Shown here one piece after another: positions 33,334-53,940 of a stretch of DNA of 64,000 bases. The position numbers and the translations under genes are program-made. The notes below the pieces were generated by a model that had not been told where the DNA came from, made no database searches, and worked only from the letters and a program-made list of their open reading frames with translations. Source of the DNA: an uncultured bacterium (GTDB lineage: Bacteria; Fidelibacterota; Marinisomatia; Marinisomatales; UBA1611); NCBI GenBank assembly GCA_965660855.1, contig CBFIBM010000003.1:1-64000 (forward strand), in the 5' to 3' direction. Every line of letters starts with the position of its first letter. Within the stretch, counting starts at the first letter, position 1.

Positions 33334-34107
33334 ATGAAAGAATATTTCAGAGGGTTTTTTACAGCCGTGTGTTTGATGTGTAGTATATTTTTATTTATTG
33401 CCTCTAGTAATAAAAATTTAGGTGATATTGTTGTGAATAGTATAACAATAGTTCCCGGGGAAAAAGGCGGAGGTTTCATTAAGTCTTTTAATAAAGAAGG
33501 TTTAGAAACCACATATTTAGGAACAGCCGAAGATGGTGTAGGCTTATTAGGCCTACACAATAAAGAAGGTAAACAAACAGTTTATTTAGGCTCGGGAAAT
33601 AAAGGGGCTGGTTTATTACAAACTTTTAATCAACAGGGTATTAAAAACATCTATATTGGATCTGGTAGTCAAAATGGAGGATCTATTCAATCATTTAATG
33701 AAGAGGGGAAACAAACCGCATATTTAGGAACAGCTGAAAATGGAGTTGGAGTCTTAGGTGTCCATAATTCTGTTGGGAAAAGAATTTGTTTCTTAGGTAC
33801 AAGTGTATATGGTTCTGGTTTTCTCAATATAAATAATAAAGATGGAGAATTATCATGCTATTTAGGATCCGGTAAGGATAATAGGGGTGGGCATTTACAA
33901 ACTTTTAATCCAAACGGTTATTTAACATCTTATGTTGGATCTTCTAGATCAAATGCAGGATTAGTCAATTTAAATAATGAATTAGGTTTGAAGGTTAGCT
34001 CATTGGGCTCTATTTACGATAATATCAATTATAAGGGGGATGGTGCAATCATGCTTTATGATAAAAATGGACAGTTTGGTTGGTCAAAAGATGGTAAAAC
34101 AAAATGA
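33334..34107 (+). CDS. Exported or membrane-anchored protein with about 8-9 tandem 23-aa Gly-rich repeats
   Basis: SD GGAG; N-terminal hydrophobic segment; repeats G-x-h-x-x-x-N-x-x-G-x-x-x-x-Y-h-G-[ST]. Confidence 0.8.
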   Translation: MKEYFRGFFTAVCLMCSIFLFIASSNKNLGDIVVNSITIVPGEKGGGFIKSFNKEGLETTYLGTAEDGVGLLGLHNKEGKQTVYLGSGNKGAGLLQTFNQQGIKNIYIGSGSQNGGSIQSFNEEGKQTAYLGTAENGVGVLGVHNSVGKRICFLGTSVYGSGFLNINNKDGELSCYLGSGKDNRGGHLQTFNPNGYLTSYVGSSRSNAGLVNLNNELGLKVSSLGSIYDNINYKGDGAIMLYDKNGQFGWSKDGKTK

Positions 34108-34576: not shown

Positions 34577-35398
34577 ATGCTAAATGAGTTATTTGTAAAT
34601 ATTATTGCTTCTGTTATTTTACTTGTATTTGGTTTTTTTTATGGAAAATATAGAGAGAAAAAATTATATGAAGGGAATAATCTTGAAGATTATGATTTTT
34701 ATCCTTTTAAACTTAATGATGAAAATAATTTAATATTTGACATTGACATTTTTTTTATGGGTGTAAAACATTTGATAAAAAATTTTGATAAGGTTGCGGG
34801 ACATCAATTAATACTCATAGGTCAGCAAAATAATATTAGTGACAAAGTAACAAGAAAAAGGAGAAGACAATATAAAAAATTATATAGAAAATATGACGGG
34901 AAAAAGCTTGTTAACGATACTGATAGGTTTTTAAAAAATTATAAAAGAATAGTTCGGTTAATTGGTGATACCTTTCCAGATTCAGGTATAGAGATTTTAC
35001 TTCATAATTTAACAAATCCTTCTAAAGCGCTTTATCATATTAAAAATAATATCACAGGTCGGAACATCGAAGCTCCTGCGACCAATCTAGTTCATGATTT
35101 AAAAATGCGTGGATTACAAAATAAAGATAAACTTAATTACGAACTAAACATCGGTTCTCGAAAGTTTAAATGTACTACTATTCCAATTTATCGCGAAAAT
35201 TATGGATTAATTGGGGCAATCTGTATAAACGTAGATTACAATTATATAAATGATGAAGTTCGTTCAAGTAATGAGAAATTAGATAGTTTTATTAATTCAA
35301 TTCTGAAAACAGAGATGGTTTTAGATGAAAATATTTTAAGTAAAAATGAGTATGATAAAGCTATTGAGGGTAAAAAACACTTTCGAGATTTTGTATAA
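34577..35398 (+). CDS. Membrane-anchored YheO-like PAS domain protein
   Basis: N-terminal TM; EILLHNL, ITGRNIEAPATN, KCTTIPI, IGAICINVD. Confidence 0.75.
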   Translation: MLNELFVNIIASVILLVFGFFYGKYREKKLYEGNNLEDYDFYPFKLNDENNLIFDIDIFFMGVKHLIKNFDKVAGHQLILIGQQNNISDKVTRKRRRQYKKLYRKYDGKKLVNDTDRFLKNYKRIVRLIGDTFPDSGIEILLHNLTNPSKALYHIKNNITGRNIEAPATNLVHDLKMRGLQNKDKLNYELNIGSRKFKCTTIPIYRENYGLIGAICINVDYNYINDEVRSSNEKLDSFINSILKTEMVLDENILSKNEYDKAIEGKKHFRDFV

Positions 35399-35401
35399 TC
35401 T

Positions 35402-36382
35402 ATGAAATCTAAATTAGACATTTTAAAAGCTTCAGAAAGAATTTCTAAATATGTTAGAAAAACATATTTTTCTTATTCATTCTCTTTTTCCAAAAATATA
35501 AAATCTGAAGTTTGGTTTAAATCTGAAAATTTACAATATACTGGATCTTTTAAAGTTAGAGGTGCATTTAATAAAATATTAAAATTATCACTTTCTGATA
35601 GGGAAAATGGAATATTAGCAGCCTCTACAGGAAACCATGGTGCTGCAATTGCTTATGCAGCTAAAGTATTAAATACTTCATGTACGATTTTTGTTCCTGA
35701 AAATACTGATTCTTCAAAATTAAATAATATAAAAAAATATGGAGCAAAAATAGAAATCTATGGAAATGATTGTATTCTTGCTGAAAGAAAAGCAAGAGAA
35801 GTTTCATATAAAAATAATCAGGTTTATATTTCTCCATATAATGATTTGGATGTAATTGAAGGGCAGGGGACGATTGCTGTTGAAATCATAGACCAAATTG
35901 ATAAACCACTAGATACAGTAATTATTTCTGTTGGCGGTGGTGGTTTGATCAGTGGTATTGCTATTTATTTAAAGTCAATTTGGCCAGAAATTCACATTAT
36001 TGGATGTTCACCAAAAAACTCTGCGGTTATGTTAAAGTCTATTGAAGCAAAAAAAATTCTTGATTTAGAATCCTTAGAAACAATTTCTGACGGAACTGCC
36101 GGAGGAGTTGAAGAAGACTCTATCACATTTCCATTATGTAAAGAATATATTGACGAGTCAGTTTATGTAACAGAGGAAGAAATAAAATCTGGATTAATTC
36201 AATATATGGAAGCTGAGCATCAAATGATTGAAGGAGCAGCAGGCGCTGCGATTGCAACATTAATTAAAAAGAGGTCTTTTTTAAAGAATAAGACTGTTGG
36301 CGTCATTCTTTGTGGAGGGAATATCAATTCAAAGGTACTAGGAGGATTGATAAGGAATGAAAAAAATAATTTTTCCACTTGA
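35402..36382 (+). CDS. PLP-dependent serine/threonine dehydratase or racemase family, no ACT domain
   Basis: ENLQYTGSFKVRGA, ASTGNHG, GQGT, VGGGGLISG, CGGN. Confidence 0.9.
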   Translation: MKSKLDILKASERISKYVRKTYFSYSFSFSKNIKSEVWFKSENLQYTGSFKVRGAFNKILKLSLSDRENGILAASTGNHGAAIAYAAKVLNTSCTIFVPENTDSSKLNNIKKYGAKIEIYGNDCILAERKAREVSYKNNQVYISPYNDLDVIEGQGTIAVEIIDQIDKPLDTVIISVGGGGLISGIAIYLKSIWPEIHIIGCSPKNSAVMLKSIEAKKILDLESLETISDGTAGGVEEDSITFPLCKEYIDESVYVTEEEIKSGLIQYMEAEHQMIEGAAGAAIATLIKKRSFLKNKTVGVILCGGNINSKVLGGLIRNEKNNFST

Positions 36383-36446
36383 AAATAGATATATTCAATA
36401 TGTCCATAGTGAGGTTATCTTAAATGTTTAAATACAGAAATAGTTT

Positions 36447-36866
36447 GTGATTAAAAATAGATTTCATCTTGCTTTCCCAGTCCATGATTTAAAAATTTCT
36501 AAGGAGTTTTATACTACGGTTTTATCTTGTGAATTAGGACGAGAGTCAGAAAATTGGGTTGATTTCAATTTTTATGGTCATCAAATTGTTGCGCATCTTG
36601 CACCAGAAGATTGTAAAAGTTATAAAGTAAATGTTGTAGATGAAGATAAAATTCCTTCATTCCACTTTGGTTTAATTCTAGAATGGAGTATATGGGAAAC
36701 ACTATATAAAAAGCTTCAATCTATGAAAATAAAGTTTTTTATAAATCCTAAAATAAGGTTTGTGAATCAAAATGGCGAACAAGGAACTTTTTTTATTAAA
36801 GATCCAAGTGGAAATGTTTTAGAGTTCAAAAGTTTTAAGGACTTTGATTATATTTTTACAAAATAA
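36447..36866 (+). CDS. VOC/glyoxalase family protein
   Basis: FHLAFPV, WVDFNFYGHQIVAH, HFG, DPSGNVLEFK. Confidence 0.9.
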   Translation: MIKNRFHLAFPVHDLKISKEFYTTVLSCELGRESENWVDFNFYGHQIVAHLAPEDCKSYKVNVVDEDKIPSFHFGLILEWSIWETLYKKLQSMKIKFFINPKIRFVNQNGEQGTFFIKDPSGNVLEFKSFKDFDYIFTK

Positions 36867-36876
36867 GAAATAAAAA

Positions 36877-38214
36877 ATGTTTAAAATCAATTTTTTACCA
36901 GATAAAAAAGTTTTTGAAGTAGAAAGAGAGGAAACTATCCTCCAAACTGCCATAAGAAATAAAATACCATATGTTAATGCATGTGGAGGTGAAGGAAAAT
37001 GTACTACTTGCCGGTTGATAGTTTTAGAAGGTATTGAAAACTGTTCAGAACAAACAGAGCAAGAAAAAGAATTAAAAGAAAAAGTTCACACTTCAGATGA
37101 ATTTAGATTAGCCTGTCAAACTAAAGTTAATGGGGATATTACGGTTAGAAGGTTAGTCTTGAATAAAGAAGATATTGAATCCGTATCTGAGAGAGGCATT
37201 TCTGGTAGATTAGGTGAAACAAAAAAAATTGCAATATTATTTAGCGATATTAGAGGTTTTACCCCATTTTCAGAAAAATTAACACCCTATGATGTAGTAT
37301 TTATTTTAAATAGGTACTTTACAAGAATGGTTAAATCTGTTGAAGAGAATCAAGGATCCGTAGATAATTATATTGGTGATGGGATGGTTGCTATTTTTGG
37401 ATTACATGGTGAAAAAGAGGCAGCAAAAAAAGCTGTCAAGGCTGCCTTGAGTATGTGTGATGAGATGGATGATATGAAACCATATTTAAAAACGATGTAT
37501 GGACAAGATTTTGATATTGGTATTGGTATTCATTGGGGAGAAGCAGTAGTTGGTGATATTGGAGCAGGGAAATCAAAAAGATTAACTGCTATTGGTGATT
37601 CTATGAATTTTGCGAGTAGAGTAGAGTCTGCTAATAAACAATTTGAATCACGTTTGTTGATTTCAGAAGAAGTTCATGAAGAAATAAAAGATGTACTTAT
37701 TGTAAAAGATTTTATGCGTACAAATTTACCTGGTATCGATGGTCGCGTAACTTTATATGAAGTTGAAGATATAAATTTTTCATCTGAAGAGAAATTAGAA
37801 AATCAAATTATTGAAGAAAATATTACCTGGAACAAAGGACCTGAATTACAGACATTTGATGAATTACCTCAACAAGTTGTTAAAATAAAAAGAGAAGATA
37901 TTTTAATTGTTAAAATTGAACAAAAATTTTACGCTTTAAATGATAAATGTCCTCATGCCTACCTTAGTTTACTTGGTAGTGATATTGATATTAAAAATGA
38001 GACCATAGCATGTAGGTGGCATAAGAGTGAATTCTGTTATAAAACAGGAGAGGTGAGGGAGTGGATGAAAATGAGTAATTTCCAGAAAATACTTGGGAAA
38101 ATAGGTTTAAATGCGGAGGCGAAAGAAGTATCACAAATGGAGCAATTGCCTATTGATGTTTATTCAATAAAGGAACAAGGTGGTTATATTTGGATTGGAT
38201 TTAAAAATGAATAA
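36877..38214 (+). CDS. [2Fe-2S] ferredoxin - class III nucleotidyl cyclase - Rieske fusion
   Basis: CGGEGKCTTC...RLAC; FSDIRGFT, YIGDG, GIGIHWG, TAIGDSMNFASRVE; CPH...CRWH. Confidence 0.9.
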   Translation: MFKINFLPDKKVFEVEREETILQTAIRNKIPYVNACGGEGKCTTCRLIVLEGIENCSEQTEQEKELKEKVHTSDEFRLACQTKVNGDITVRRLVLNKEDIESVSERGISGRLGETKKIAILFSDIRGFTPFSEKLTPYDVVFILNRYFTRMVKSVEENQGSVDNYIGDGMVAIFGLHGEKEAAKKAVKAALSMCDEMDDMKPYLKTMYGQDFDIGIGIHWGEAVVGDIGAGKSKRLTAIGDSMNFASRVESANKQFESRLLISEEVHEEIKDVLIVKDFMRTNLPGIDGRVTLYEVEDINFSSEEKLENQIIEENITWNKGPELQTFDELPQQVVKIKREDILIVKIEQKFYALNDKCPHAYLSLLGSDIDIKNETIACRWHKSEFCYKTGEVREWMKMSNFQKILGKIGLNAEAKEVSQMEQLPIDVYSIKEQGGYIWIGFKNE

Positions 38215-38229
38215 ATTAGAATTTTAAAA

Positions 38230-38634
38230 ATGGAGAAAAATATGGAATGGACAAAGCTTACAAATATTAAAAGCTTTGATAAAGAATCTCAGCAATTAAT
38301 AAAAGTAAAAAGAGATGAAATCTTAGTCATAAAAGATAATAATGGCTTTCATGCAATAAATAATAGATGTCCTCATATGGGTCTTAGTTTGAATACAACT
38401 AAGTGTAATTTAAAAGATAAAACTGTAAATTGTAAATTCCATTCAAGCTCATTCTCTTATCAAACAGGTGAAGTTAATAGTTGGCTTAATGTCAAGGGAA
38501 TAGAAAAATTCATGATATGGCTTTTTTCGAAATTTGACAATGATGCCAAAGAAATGATGGCAATGAAACCAACTCCGGTTGAGGTGTTCCAGACTAAAGT
38601 TGAAGATGGTTTTGTCTGGGTTGGAATTAATTGA
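38230..38634 (+). CDS. Rieske [2Fe-2S] protein
   Basis: CPHMG...CKFH; C-terminal VEDGFVWV. Confidence 0.9.
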   Translation: MEKNMEWTKLTNIKSFDKESQQLIKVKRDEILVIKDNNGFHAINNRCPHMGLSLNTTKCNLKDKTVNCKFHSSSFSYQTGEVNSWLNVKGIEKFMIWLFSKFDNDAKEMMAMKPTPVEVFQTKVEDGFVWVGIN

Positions 38635-38666
38635 TTTTAATTAAAAAAATAAGGTGATCTTTTAAT

Positions 38667-39101
38667 ATGAAGGATAAAAAAGAGTTTCTAGAAGGTGATA
38701 TTCTTTGGACTAATGTAGCAAAAATATCAAGTTTTACTAAAAAAAACCAACAAGTATTTAATGTAAATAGGAATGAAATATTAGTCATAAAAACAAATGA
38801 TAATTTTAAGGCGATACAAAATAGATGCCCGCATGCTGGCTTATCGATGAAAGGTAGTAAGTTTAATACTAAAACAGAGATAATAACCTGTAAATGGCAT
38901 AAAACATTATTTTGTAGTAAAACAGGTGATGTAAAAAAATGGGTTGATGTAAGTACCTTCGAGAAAAAAATTGCTCATTTTCTCGCTAGATTTAGTAAAA
39001 AAATGAAACAAATGGTGGAAATGAATCCGACTCCAATAGAGATTTTTATTGTTAAAGAAATTAAAGAAGATATATGGGTAGGTATAGAGGTCGGAAATTA
39101 G
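38667..39101 (+). CDS. Rieske [2Fe-2S] protein
   Basis: CPHAG...CKWH; SD AAGGTGA. Confidence 0.9.
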   Translation: MKDKKEFLEGDILWTNVAKISSFTKKNQQVFNVNRNEILVIKTNDNFKAIQNRCPHAGLSMKGSKFNTKTEIITCKWHKTLFCSKTGDVKKWVDVSTFEKKIAHFLARFSKKMKQMVEMNPTPIEIFIVKEIKEDIWVGIEVGN

Positions 39102-39606
39102 ACACTTAAAGTATTTTTTTTTAATATTTCTTACTGCATTTTCAGAAATCAACTCAAAAGATATTTGGTATGAGAAAAATTTAAAAGATTTAGAAGATAT
39201 TTCATTAGAACTGAATGTTGTAGGTATTAAGGATGATGTATGGGAATCAAGACTATATAATTTCTTAGAGTTGCGTATTTTAGAGCATGATATTGTGATA
39301 TTAAAAAATCAAATCCCCAAATTGGTTATTGATATTAATATCATTGATTCTAGGGTTGAAAAAACTTCATCTTTCTTTGTAGGACTTAGTTTATATAGTT
39401 ATAGTATCTCAGAAAAAATGTATTACAAGTCTATTGCAGATACTCTTATCACTAAGAAACTTATGACAAGTAAGTTTTTTTCAACTGAAATAATGGGGCA
39501 ATCTTCCTCAAATAATTTGTATAGAGATGTTGAAAAATCTATAAATAGATTAGTATCTAATTTTATTGATCAGTGGTACCAAGATAATCCTCTCAAACAA
39601 TTTTAA
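39097..39606 (+). CDS. Hypothetical exported protein, probable ATT start
   Basis: Frame is open 58 codons upstream of the track TTG 39271, giving signal-like IRHLKYFFLIFLTAFS; GAGGT 5 nt before ATT. Confidence 0.6.
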   Translation: MRHLKYFFLIFLTAFSEINSKDIWYEKNLKDLEDISLELNVVGIKDDVWESRLYNFLELRILEHDIVILKNQIPKLVIDINIIDSRVEKTSSFFVGLSLYSYSISEKMYYKSIADTLITKKLMTSKFFSTEIMGQSSSNNLYRDVEKSINRLVSNFIDQWYQDNPLKQF

Positions 39607-39695
39607 GTACTCCTAATAAATGTCTTTCTTTGAGATTGATTTATACCGATGTAATTTTAAGCGAAAGTCGAAAATTATCTTTATTTAGATTTATT

Positions 39696-40709
39696 ATGAT
39701 CCGAGCGTTTATTATATCAAATTTTTTGATTTTTTGTTTTGGGCAAGAAATCACAAAAACTGTTTCATATGATACAGGAAATAACCTCGCTGTTTTAAGG
39801 TTCGAAGGTTGGGGGATATCGGACCCGTTAACAAAGTATTTAACAGAAGAATTAAGAGAAACAATTAGAGATTTAGATATATTTCAAGTGCAAGATCGTG
39901 GCTTAACTAATGAAATCAAGATTTATTATCCACGGAAAAAAAATTATTGGGCATGTTGGAGCCAGGAGTGTGTTATTGATATTGGACAAAGGTTAAATGT
40001 CGAATTTATAATTGCCGGTAATATTCAAAAAAGAAATAATGATGAATTTCTAATTAATGGCCGTTTATTTTCGGTTGACATGGAAACATTAGTAAGCGAA
40101 TTCGCAATGAATAGTAGTGGGATAACAGATAGTTTACTATTAGAAATGAAAAAAATGGCTTACAATATAAGTGGGCTCCCTGTTCCCGATACCCTTTCGG
40201 TTGGCTCTGATACAACTTCGGTTATGCTAACTAATAATTTAGATAGAAAAAAAAATTGGTTCTCTCTTCCACCAATACCTAGTAAGATAAAAGCTTTGAT
40301 GATGTCAACGGCACTTCCAGGAAGTGGGCAAATATGGGCACAAAAAAAGATTCCTGGGTATGGATTTATGGGGACCGAAGCAACCCTTGGAACTGCCGCA
40401 TTGATATCCTATCTGCAATATCAAAAATCATGGGGAAATTTTGAAAAAACCTATAATTCATATCAAAATGAATCTGACCCACATAATTTGATTTCAATAA
40501 GACCAAAAGTTATACAATATGCTTCCGAAACACGCAGATATAATTCCTTCATGAAAAATATAAGGAGTATCGCTGCCTCTATCTGGGTTTTTAATATGGT
40601 GCATGCATATTTGGTTGCACCGAATGATGATTTTTTTGATGGGGAATATTTTTTTGATATTGAATACGAACCAAATATTAATCAATTACAATTCAATGTC
40701 AATTTTTAA
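39696..40709 (+). CDS. Exported protein with CsgG/TolB-N-like domain and C-terminal DUF5683-like region
   Basis: LAVLRFEG, QDR, C...C..DIGQRLNVEFIIAGNI; ALMMSTALPGSGQIW, WVFNMVHAY; ATG 39696 gives a signal peptide. Confidence 0.6.
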   Translation: MIRAFIISNFLIFCFGQEITKTVSYDTGNNLAVLRFEGWGISDPLTKYLTEELRETIRDLDIFQVQDRGLTNEIKIYYPRKKNYWACWSQECVIDIGQRLNVEFIIAGNIQKRNNDEFLINGRLFSVDMETLVSEFAMNSSGITDSLLLEMKKMAYNISGLPVPDTLSVGSDTTSVMLTNNLDRKKNWFSLPPIPSKIKALMMSTALPGSGQIWAQKKIPGYGFMGTEATLGTAALISYLQYQKSWGNFEKTYNSYQNESDPHNLISIRPKVIQYASETRRYNSFMKNIRSIAASIWVFNMVHAYLVAPNDDFFDGEYFFDIEYEPNINQLQFNVNF

Positions 40710-51380: not shown

Positions 51381-51734
51381 ATGAAAAAAATAGATTTAAG
51401 AAGCATAATGATCGGGATTTTAGGAGCCACTCTTTTCTTTGTTCTCATCAGCGCAGATGAACCAGTTGTAGATGAAGGGAACCTAGGTGACATCATAGTA
51501 AACTCTATCACTATTCGTGATGATGGACATGGAGGATTCATAACTGCATATAATCAAGACCAAAAAAGAACTTTGTATCTAGGCACTGGAAAAGAGGAGA
51601 ATGGTTATGTGCAAACATATAATAAATATGAACAACCCACTGCATATATTGGTTCCAATAGAGATATGGATGGTATTATTGTATTGAATGATCGTTATGG
51701 TACTTTAGGCCATAGCCAATCAGGTAAGAAATGA
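51381..51734 (+). CDS. Short paralog of the 23-aa repeat protein at 33334
   Basis: Shares NLGDI.VNSITI...GGF and YLGT/YIGS repeats; SD AGGGG. Confidence 0.8.
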   Translation: MKKIDLRSIMIGILGATLFFVLISADEPVVDEGNLGDIIVNSITIRDDGHGGFITAYNQDQKRTLYLGTGKEENGYVQTYNKYEQPTAYIGSNRDMDGIIVLNDRYGTLGHSQSGKK

Positions 51735-51925: not shown

Positions 51926-52942
51926 ATGAAAAAAATTAATATTGCTTTATTTGGATTTGGTAGAATTGGCCGTAATATTTTTAGATTGGGCTATGACAAT
52001 CCAAAATATAATTTTGTTGCAATTAGTGACTTTGGTTCTCTTGAAGCATTGCACTATTTACTTGTTAGAGATTCAATACATGGGGCTATGAAAGATGAAG
52101 TCCAGCTTGACGGAAACTATTTAAGAGTCAAAGATCAGAAAGTTAGAGTTATTAGCGGTGGACAGCCCGGCACTATCCCCTGGGACATATATGATGTTGA
52201 TATTGTTATTGATGCTACAGGTCGTTTTCTTAAAAAATCAGATTTAGCGCTGCATTTGGATTCTGGAGCAAAAAAAGTTTTTACCACTAGAAATCCTAAA
52301 GAAACAATTGACCGATATGTTATACCTGGAATTAATGATATGGATATAAAAGTTTCAGATAAAATAATTTCTACAACATCTTCTACCACACAAGTATTAG
52401 CTTTAATGATTAAGATGCTAGACGAATCGTTTGGATTAGAAAGAGCAATGATGACAACTGTACACGCTTATACTGCAGATCAGCCACTTGCAGATGCAGC
52501 AGGTTTAGATTTACGAAGAAGTAGATCCGCAGTTGAAAATATCATACCAAACTCAACATTTGCTCCTTCAATCGTTGAAAAAATAATGCCAAAGTTCAAA
52601 GGAAAAATTGATGGTATGGCTTTCAATGTTCCGGTTCCTAATGGGTCATGTGTTGACTTGACAACTGAATTAAAAAATACTCCATCTGTAGAAGAGGCAA
52701 ATCATGCAATAAAAGAGTTCTCTGAAAATTCTTTAAAAAATATTGTTGGTTATACAGCTGATCCAATCGTTTCAAGTGATGTTAGTGGTAGAGAGGAGAC
52801 AATGGTTTTTGATGAAAAAGCAACAATGATTACAAAAGATGCCCTTCTAAAAACTCTTTGCTGGTATGATAATGGCTGGGGATTCTCGAAAAGAATTTTA
52901 GATGTAATTGATAAATATTCAGAATTGGAGAGAAAATCGTGA
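51926..52942 (+). CDS. GAPDH-like protein lacking the catalytic cysteine
   Basis: GFGRIGR, DATG.F, TTVHAYT, VPVPNGS, WYDNGWG; active-site region is STTSSTTQV. Confidence 0.88.
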   Translation: MKKINIALFGFGRIGRNIFRLGYDNPKYNFVAISDFGSLEALHYLLVRDSIHGAMKDEVQLDGNYLRVKDQKVRVISGGQPGTIPWDIYDVDIVIDATGRFLKKSDLALHLDSGAKKVFTTRNPKETIDRYVIPGINDMDIKVSDKIISTTSSTTQVLALMIKMLDESFGLERAMMTTVHAYTADQPLADAAGLDLRRSRSAVENIIPNSTFAPSIVEKIMPKFKGKIDGMAFNVPVPNGSCVDLTTELKNTPSVEEANHAIKEFSENSLKNIVGYTADPIVSSDVSGREETMVFDEKATMITKDALLKTLCWYDNGWGFSKRILDVIDKYSELERKS

Positions 52943-53940
52943 AAGTAGCAATTAATGGTTTTGGGCGTATAGGTCGCTCAGTTTTTCGTATTTTAAATTC
53001 TAGGCCTGACGTTGATGTCGTTGCCATAAATGATATTTTTGATAAAGAGGCATTAACGTATTTATTAAAATATGATACAGTGATGGGAAGGTTTCCGGAG
53101 GATGTGACTTTAGACGGTGACATTCTTAAAACTCAAAGTCAAAATGTAAAACTTATTGCAGAAAGAAACCCTGAAGAACTGCCTTGGGGTGGAATGGGAA
53201 TAGATATTGTAATTGAGTCCACAGGAATATTTCGTCAAAAATCTCAACTTGAAGACCATTTAAAAGCTGGCGCCAAGAGAGTTGTATTGACGGTGCCCGC
53301 AAAAGATGAAATTGATTACACTGTTGTATTAGGTGTTAATGATGATGGTTTAAAGCCAGAACATAAAATTGTTTCAAATGCTTCTTGCACTACAAATTGT
53401 TTAGCCCCAATGGCAAAAGTTCTTAATGATGAATTTGGAATTGAACTTGGTGTTATTAATACGATTCATGCCTATACAAATGATCAGCGTCTTGCAGATG
53501 TACCTCATTCAGATTGGAGACGTAGTAGAGCAGCTGCTGAAAATGTTATTCCTACGACCACAGGTGCTGCTAGAGCGGTAGGAAAAGTCCTACCTGAATT
53601 AAATGGAAAGTTAGATGGTATAGCTATGAGAGTTCCGGTTCCAGATGGTTCAGTCGTAGATTTTAATATAAGATTGGAACAAGATGTCACAGTGGATCAG
53701 ATTAATGATGCAGTTCATAGTGCTTCAGAAACAGGCGCATTGAAAAATGTTCTAGAATATTCTACCTTGCCTGTAGTTTCTACTGACATTATTGGGAATC
53801 CACATTCATCAATTTTTGATGCACCATTCACAAGAGTAATTGGTGGCAATTATGTTAAAACACTTAATTGGTACGATAATGAGTGGGGATATTCTAATAG
53901 AGTTGCTGATTTACTCGGGGTATTATATAAGTTAGGCTAA
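52939..53940 (+). CDS. gap: Type I glyceraldehyde-3-phosphate dehydrogenase
   Basis: INGFGRIGR, SNASCTTNCLAP, TTTGAA, RVP, WYDNEWGYS. Confidence 0.97.
   Translation: MKVAINGFGRIGRSVFRILNSRPDVDVVAINDIFDKEALTYLLKYDTVMGRFPEDVTLDGDILKTQSQNVKLIAERNPEELPWGGMGIDIVIESTGIFRQKSQLEDHLKAGAKRVVLTVPAKDEIDYTVVLGVNDDGLKPEHKIVSNASCTTNCLAPMAKVLNDEFGIELGVINTIHAYTNDQRLADVPHSDWRRSRAAAENVIPTTTGAARAVGKVLPELNGKLDGIAMRVPVPDGSVVDFNIRLEQDVTVDQINDAVHSASETGALKNVLEYSTLPVVSTDIIGNPHSSIFDAPFTRVIGGNYVKTLNWYDNEWGYSNRVADLLGVLYKLG

Follow-up and report, generated by a model that had tools for sequence, protein, structure and literature searches.

This report deals with a three-domain protein encoded in a 64,000-nucleotide stretch of DNA (the window; positions 1 to 64,000 of contig CBFIBM010000003.1, assembly GCA_965660855.1) from an uncultured bacterium of the Fidelibacterota. 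In this fusion of 445 amino acids (aa), a [2Fe-2S] ferredoxin domain (Fer2) precedes a class III cyclase, which is in turn followed by a Rieske ferredoxin domain; two free Rieske genes, R1 and R2, lie directly downstream. The fusion is a real, conserved, and soluble variant of the CyaC kind of cyclase and not a new class of system. On balance, we favor the view that it is a soluble, CyaC-like, redox-gated class III cyclase in which the Rieske domain takes the place of the diheme anchor. A preliminary description, made from the sequence alone, had proposed a redox-sensing system with an array of Rieske partners. Comparison with the CyaC core and with the redox partner domains of related proteins supports redox control well; the array as a core part of the system is not supported.

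The fusion protein and its locus

The genes of the locus and the domains of the fusion are as follows.

36447–36866, + strand: VOC/glyoxalase-fold gene, 139 aa (Pfam Glyoxalase)
36877–38214, + strand: Fer2–class III cyclase–Rieske fusion, 445 aa (Pfam; AlphaFold model)
36898–37128, + strand: ISC/adrenodoxin-type [2Fe-2S] ferredoxin domain of the fusion, as classed from its sequence (ligands C36, C42, C45, C80)
37216–37770, + strand: class III cyclase domain of the fusion (metal residues D124 and D168, transition-state residues N244 and R248, adenine-type second site T237, and Asn164)
37822–38205, + strand: fused Rieske ferredoxin domain (C358, H360, C379, H382)
38230–38634, + strand: free Rieske paralogue R1, 134 aa (Pfam Rieske; clade of 16 rows, support 100/99)
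38667–39101, + strand: free Rieske paralogue R2, 144 aa (Pfam Rieske; clade of three rows, G000/G316/G317, support 100/99)

The coordinates, gene order, and spacings first described are exact, with 10 nucleotides (nt) between the VOC gene and the fusion, 15 nt between the fusion and R1, and 32 nt between R1 and R2, all on the + strand. The three-domain composition stands as well: Fer2 (residues 8–84), Guanylate_cyc (114–271; PF00211, 77.9 bits against a cut-off of 21.9), and Rieske (332–402) all score above the curated Pfam cut-offs, and both stand-alone genes do so for Rieske. The protein begins at the ferredoxin and has no transmembrane segment predicted by a hydropathy scan.

A missed stop or an assembly artifact, named beforehand as fatal to the idea, is excluded by two observations. 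Among the 120 best of 1944 matches to the fusion (60–100% identity, with the source names given pointing to Marinimicrobia), the cyclase and Rieske domains occur together in all 120 and Fer2 is also present in 118. Moreover, an independent assembly (run X9) covers positions 35056–37717 with 0 differences and 37722–40141 with 3, neither of them gapped, and the 4 bases between the two X9 contigs are the sole break in independent coverage of the locus. A conserved read-through from the fusion into R1 was also considered; R1 is in frame after the TAA here, but such read-through is unsupported because, by a count of coordinates, the frame is kept at just 6 of the 11 loci. Contigs from three RNA-library runs bridge VOC–fusion and R1–R2 in 3/3 and fusion–R1 in 2/3, yet they are not evidence for an operon, since flanking genes are covered too and a DNA origin is possible. 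A promoter scan stayed at chance level (30 against 28.2), and of three terminator-like sites (1.2 in shuffles) none lies on the + strand inside the locus.

The Fer2 domain is present, but the plant-type spacing originally read into it (x4) is not, the motif being C36-x5-C42-x2-C45...C80. Its best matches are TIGR02007 (fdx_isc), the Escherichia coli ferredoxin 1i7h, and adrenodoxin homologues, and on sequence grounds we class it as ISC/adrenodoxin-type, not plant-type. The class III catalytic residues were correctly recognized, namely both metal-binding Asp (D124 and D168) together with N244 and R248. The Fer2 cysteines and the metal and transition-state residues are invariant in 19 aligned fusions, and E63, R77, and the Fer2 cysteines are so across an alignment of 120 sequences. 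AlphaFold modeling with 19 close sequences gave a pLDDT of just 66; with the 120 sequences it reached pLDDT 91 and pTM 0.84, and this pTM suggests three domains held in a fixed arrangement.

The closest fold match of the cyclase domain is CyaB of Pseudomonas aeruginosa (3r5g; Z 27.3, rmsd 1.6, 188 aligned), in searches that bear on the cyclase domain alone; none of the structure matches listed spans ferredoxin and cyclase. CyaB, Cya2 of Synechocystis (2w01), and CyaC of S. platensis (1wc0–1wc6) share the fold (Z 26–27, rmsd 1.6–2.1) and the catalytic Asp/Asp/Asn/Arg with the fusion. They differ from it in being without iron–sulfur domains and in their purine-site residue, which is Lys or Glu.

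Kinship with CyaC and the partners of the ferredoxin–cyclase core

That Fer2–cyclase fusions exist had been rightly noted, as the core is common to the CyaC type (PMC10463352 and PMC4821796). According to PMC4821796, 30 class IIIb cyclases form a cluster in which the ferredoxin sits between the catalytic domain and a cytochrome-b-like anchor. PMC10463352 reports that a [2Fe-2S] cluster was shown in CyaC and that its hemes are oxidized or reduced by ubiquinone, affecting cyclase activity; PMC11933291 cites this. The fusion has the ferredoxin-before-cyclase order described for this type (Fer2 at 8–84, cyclase from 114; PMC4821796). It has in common with CyaC of Sinorhizobium meliloti (SMc01818) and with the class IIIb adenylate cyclase cluster that has six transmembrane segments (6TM) and a ferredoxin both the [2Fe-2S] ferredoxin directly before the cyclase and a Thr at the second specificity site. 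CyaC, on the other hand, has a 6TM anchor with four heme-binding His, whereas the window fusion is without anchor or heme, has a C-terminal Rieske domain, and carries Asn where CyaC has Lys at the first specificity site. Unlike with CyaC, a TetR (CycR) gene was not recognized beside the window's gene, and free Rieske duplicates lie downstream in part of the lineage. As to the impression that no description was known, we found no publication on a Fer2–cyclase–Rieske protein, although subscription papers (Wissig 2019, architecture surveys) lay outside the search and could list it; the core, however, has a characterized precedent in CyaC, which makes the design less novel than first thought.

Comparative evidence comes from the domains to which this core is joined. 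The Fer2–cyclase part was compared with 1.84 billion representatives, giving 773 matches at E 1e-30; from the 150 best of them, the 96 longest were scanned against Pfam (E 1e-5 and 1e-4). A named extra domain was found in 57, no further family in 38, and one (PAS/TPR) was without the core. The extra domain binds a redox cofactor in 52 of the 57: heme peroxidase (17), globin (17), NAD_binding_1 (8), Rieske (8, one also with CDGSH), CDGSH alone (1), and a ferric-reductase-like cytochrome b (1). The remaining five carry YceI (3), DUF4079 (1), or DUF2769 (1), and REC, PAS, GAF, HAMP, CHASE2, and TPR occur in none of the 57. In a control with the other cyclases of the same genome (10 of 11 scanned), a redox domain was found in 0/10, and REC, PAS/GAF, CHASE2, or TPR in 7/10. 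Redox input to the cyclase is thus supported, because the partner domains are nearly always redox-cofactor domains. The Fer2 cysteine ligands are retained in 145, 147, 147, and 150 of 151 core rows. In a FastTree of 150 cores at least four changes are needed to account for the C-terminal Rieske, and a form with the Rieske at its N-terminus sits elsewhere in the tree, which indicates that the pairing of Rieske and core arose or was lost repeatedly.

Several relatives deserve mention in their own right. Many of the 38 proteins without a further family have His-bearing membrane N-termini; 14 such membrane-anchored forms, labelled CyaC-like, make up one clade and are putative CyaC orthologues. P0217 has K408/T482 where CyaC has K410/T484. 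A second membrane-anchored type with spaced His (P0129, P0131, P0154, P0155, and P0210; DUF4079 in one) falls outside the CyaC-like clade and has Asn at the Lys site in 5/5. Eight proteins (P0146, P0150, P0151, P0153, P0163, P0169, P0171, and P0181) add a C-terminal NAD-binding reductase-like domain to the core and are candidate direct sensors from NAD(P)H to cyclic AMP (cAMP). P0122, which has 587 aa and represents a cluster with 347 members, combines tandem CDGSH, Fer2, cyclase, and Rieske and thereby brings three kinds of [2Fe-2S] site to a single cyclase. In P0211, P0215, and P0237 the core is fused to YceI, a polyisoprenoid/quinone-binding domain. In P0188 it is fused to DUF2769, a Cys-rich family whose role, as this pairing suggests, may involve a metal or Fe-S cluster.

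These partners also bear on the idea that the switch is cluster occupancy and not electron transfer. Iron limitation, O2, or NO would cause loss of the exposed, His-ligated Rieske cluster or of that in Fer2, the apo or holo state would set activity, and the free Rieskes would buffer or donate clusters. The Fer2 domain is indeed nearest to an ISC ferredoxin, and Rieske and CDGSH, both His-ligated, serve as alternative or joint partners (P0122, P0130); CDGSH clusters are labile. We nonetheless regard this explanation as unlikely: most partners (peroxidase, reductase, globin, cytochrome b) handle electrons or gas and do not donate clusters, and no Fe-S assembly or iron-uptake gene was recognized by eye among the neighbors.

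Nucleotide specificity

Class III cyclases specify the purine at two sites. The first (Lys in CyaB, Glu in Cya2) was overlooked in the preliminary description and is Asn164 in the fusion, invariant in all 19 aligned fusions. The second is Thr237, as in CyaB, and is Thr in 123 of 151 core rows. Hence the fusion has neither the canonical adenylate cyclase pair (Lys with Asp/Thr), as Thr237 is present but Lys is replaced by Asn164, nor the guanylate cyclase pair (Glu with Cys/Gly), having Asn164/Thr237 against Glu/Gly in Cya2. The adenylyl cyclase Rv1900c likewise has Asn at the Lys site. Across the 151 core rows this site holds Lys in 81, Asn in 40, and Asp, Ser, or others in 29, with the guanine-type Glu in none, and Lys is found in 2 of 9 C-terminal Rieske fusions. 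The Lys site is important for the use of ATP in the class III cyclase Ma1120, where a Lys-to-Glu exchange cut adenylyl cyclase activity by 92% at pH 7.5 (PMC4215837).

Given Asn164, the product of the fusion is uncertain; cAMP appears the likeliest, because Thr occupies the second site, Lys is found in 81/151 rows, and Glu in none. A redox-gated cyclase might still make cyclic GMP or a mixture, or be a weak enzyme that is mainly a scaffold. The spread of Asn, present in all aligned fusions and over a quarter of the core rows, with Asp, Ser, and others in 29 more, would fit relaxed specificity, but a CyaB-like Thr at the second site, the frequency of Lys (two C-terminal Rieske fusions included), and the lack of any guanine-type Glu make such an altered product doubtful.

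Fused and free Rieske domains

All three Rieske domains have complete ligand sets (fusion C358/H360/C379/H382, R1 C47/H49/C68/H71, R2 C54/H56/C75/H78). Within the family to which the window's genome belongs, the C-x-H box (CPH) is found in 55/55 Rieske rows and CxxH in 53/55, the other two being one row at a contig end and one with X. R2 is 43% and the fused domain 35% identical to R1. Their nearest solved relatives are dioxygenase ferredoxins (E 7e-8 to 2e-4). With those of aromatic dioxygenases (toluene, 4emj/3dqy; biphenyl BphF, 1fqt/2e4p; carbazole CarAc) they have in common the CxH...CxxH ligands, the core, and the lack of the bc1-type disulfide pair. Unlike them, they carry an insert of about 25 residues after TGxVxxW (TGEVxxW in the fused domain), helical in the model, and are fused to or encoded behind a cyclase instead of keeping company with an oxygenase and a reductase.

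The claim that the free copies are paralogues of the fused domain is borne out, as free copies and fused domains of the lineage group apart from other fused Rieskes (99/99; rows under 115 residues left out of the tree). The array proposed as a core part fares worse. A free Rieske lies directly behind the fusion in 18 of 32 fusion-bearing genomes of the family (2 read across contig ends) and in none of the other 14. Two copies are found only in the window's genome and one other of its genus (G000 and G316), and the flanks of 4/4 full-length fusions outside the lineage (L102, L103, L106, L107) are without one. R1 is the common free type, with conserved stand-alone homologues of 130–138 aa and no plasmid match at E 1e-6. 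R2 was found, among the genomes sampled, only in the three of the window's genus (G000/G316/G317). R1, R2, and a third free type are separate deep branches; 17 of the 18 free-copy loci could be placed, and in all 17 the fused domain falls into a single 100/99 clade. The trees point to old in-lineage duplicates of the fused domain, inherited in one sub-lineage and optional, though under selection, with their ligands intact. The Rieske array thus reads as a local elaboration, not as an essential part. A complex prediction with two copies of residues 1–302 and R1 (both as alignments) scored 0.00 in both runs, the controls likewise not folding, and so speaks neither for nor against such a complex.

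Two further observations concern Rieske domains of the lineage. In the fusions of G303, G305, G263, G310, G311, and G319 the cores nest with G244/G304 (88/86), but the Rieske domains fall into a deep clade of their own, which has a CAWH box like that of the free copy of G247; the fused Rieske may have been swapped for a paralogue there. In one genome (G329; L223:3666-4688), a bacterioferritin-like gene remote from the fusion is followed by a shorter, more distantly related Rieske.

The Rieske domains also frame the next alternative, in which the clusters would have a structural role or be vestiges, other means would regulate the cyclase, and R1 and R2 would be ordinary ferredoxins of another pathway, for instance for an orphan Rieske oxygenase. 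Such an alpha subunit is encoded on another contig of the same genome (G000:C7:5671-6735), between amidinotransferase-like and saccharopine-dehydrogenase-like genes (G000:C7:4596-7663; L238), with no ferredoxin or reductase gene recognized beside it. The closeness to dioxygenase ferredoxins and the absence of free copies from 14/32 genomes agree with this explanation. However, the chain of a Rieske oxygenase is incomplete at the locus, with no oxygenase adjacent and no Reductase_C match in the genome (84% complete), and the oxygenase has homologues in 5/18 genomes with free copies against 16/36 without (kin, and thus not independent counts). R1/R2-type genes were seen only directly behind the fusion (two cases across contig ends) and branch with the fused domains of the lineage. 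The redox nature of the partner domains would, moreover, be left unexplained, and all in all we find this alternative hard to credit.

Distribution

This Rieske subfamily occurs in 14 of 301 genomes drawn from the phylum, 13 of the 14 in the window's family. The Fer2–cyclase core is found in 34/233 genomes of the order, 32/54 in the family and two in one other genus, and subfamily and core are found in the same 32 family genomes. Many sampled genomes are incomplete, so that misses mean "not found," and L001–L004, possible duplicates of sampled genomes, are excluded from the genome counts. Full-length loci numbered 4 of 42 in a search of genome contigs (the remainder matching the ferredoxin part alone), and of 80 loci from a metagenome search, 3 were complete or nearly so. 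Among 572 matching plasmid records, two megaplasmids encode full-length three-domain proteins, those of Rhizobium etli 8C-3 and R. gallicum R602; the former, from a cultured strain (NZ_CP017244.1, about 1948690–1950080, − strand), is 39% identical to the fusion over 464 columns. Among 30 Atlas matches, five clusters combine all three families; the three displayed, with few records, comprise one that is mostly Fidelibacterota and two of Pseudomonadota. The architecture is therefore widespread and already bears automatic annotations. In R. etli the fusion follows a run of benzoate-dioxygenase-like reductase, dehydrogenase, transporter, and hydrolase genes (L102:1502-5686), a neighborhood that is probably due to chance, since the R. 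gallicum locus differs.

Patchiness, the altered purine site, and a match of PycC models to the cyclase domain (best E 4.6e-27) might recall Pycsar-like anti-phage systems, but the matches are limited to the generic class III domain, VOC, R1, and R2 have no PADLOC match (no adjacent PycTM or PycTIR effector among these three neighbors), and the position is usually syntenic and chromosomal among housekeeping-like genes, so this origin is most improbable.

Proposed mechanism

In the mechanism that we favor, the fusion would load both clusters and work as a homodimer, most likely making cAMP. The redox state of the N-terminal [2Fe-2S] ferredoxin, packed on the catalytic domain, would set the cyclase rate, upward or downward, and the C-terminal Rieske would be the point of electron entry, replacing the diheme-b membrane anchor of CyaC. 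Its exchange partner would be an electron donor or an oxidant in the cytoplasm, and it would relay the electrons to the ferredoxin; across the family, the variable partner domain would load or unload this ferredoxin switch. Dioxygenase-type Rieskes have potentials of about −150 mV and adrenodoxin-type clusters lower ones, so the Rieske could drain the ferredoxin as well as fill it. R1 and R2 may be optional diffusible carriers in the same circuit, retained in one sub-lineage. The cyclic nucleotide would act via the CRP-type regulator of the genome, which has a CRP-type protein, six cNMP-binding matches above the cut-off, and 12 class III cyclase matches; with so many cyclases, the output of the fusion must be read against many others.

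Critically speaking, several points weigh against this mechanism. The adenine-binding Lys, a site shown to be important in Ma1120 (PMC4215837), is replaced by Asn164. Many relatives consist of the core only (about 300 aa; 53 were unscanned and some are perhaps fragments), so the core can exist without an input domain. The only experimentally described redox-regulated ferredoxin–cyclase that we found is a membrane protein, with no soluble one beside it, and no account was found of whether the [2Fe-2S] cluster of CyaC acts as a relay or structurally, the primary paper being outside the search. No dedicated electron donor was found either: a Reductase_C match is absent, and the single NAD_binding_1 match in the genome (84% complete) is a 411-aa Fer2-bearing frame taken for NqrF. 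Finally, free copies are confined to a single sub-lineage, so that their linkage to the fusion counts as one event, not many.

A bolder version, possible if rather unlikely, sees in the ferredoxin–cyclase core a general electron-gated second-messenger chassis, connected by bacteria to various redox inputs time and again. Its inputs would be quinone through cytochrome b, peroxide through peroxidase, O2 or NO through globin, NAD(P)H through reductase, and soluble carriers through Rieske or CDGSH. R1 and R2 would then act in trans on one cyclase as interchangeable inputs, each with its own potential or preferred donor, and the nucleotide written by the Asn164 branch would be one other than cAMP.

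The VOC gene and the surroundings

The VOC gene lies 10 nt upstream and matches Pfam Glyoxalase, as described, but its link to the system rests on gene order. Of the 32 fusion-bearing genomes, 25 have it directly upstream, one has it behind the free Rieske, two have it on another contig, and in four it was not found. It also occurs in 11/22 family genomes without the fusion, so its distribution is independent, and none was recognized by eye near the four outside loci. Adjacency is kept at the single locus that is rearranged, and G318, which has two fusion loci, shows it at both. The gene is probably a usual neighbor with a possible functional link, not a defining or obligatory part.

In agreement with the first reading, no oxygenase or reductase was recognized in the open reading frames (ORFs) of the window (by eye; 16 nearby ORFs Pfam-scanned), and the locus mostly keeps a syntenic place on the chromosome, with housekeeping-like genes around it. 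Upstream, 34577–35398 encodes a YheO-like PAS_6 protein that has a hydrophobic segment at its N-terminus and matches no HTH; a threonine/serine dehydratase follows directly (35402–36382). The product of 33334–34107, a Gly-rich repeat protein of 257 aa, has a signal-like N-terminus, matches nothing in Pfam, and has a shorter paralogue at 51381–51734, with a GDIxVNSITI stretch in common, and two tandem GAPDH-like genes were recognized by eye at 51926–53940.

Significance

The soluble form of 445 residues, together with the homologue of R. etli 8C-3, makes the switching of a class III cyclase by an electron on a [2Fe-2S] cluster directly testable. If the proposed mechanism is true, the peroxidase, globin, reductase, Rieske, and CDGSH forms would become readable as cytoplasmic redox-to-cAMP transducers, and the fusion might serve as a redox-gated cAMP tool. 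For this uncultured Marinimicrobia lineage, it would provide a candidate sensor of the redox state.

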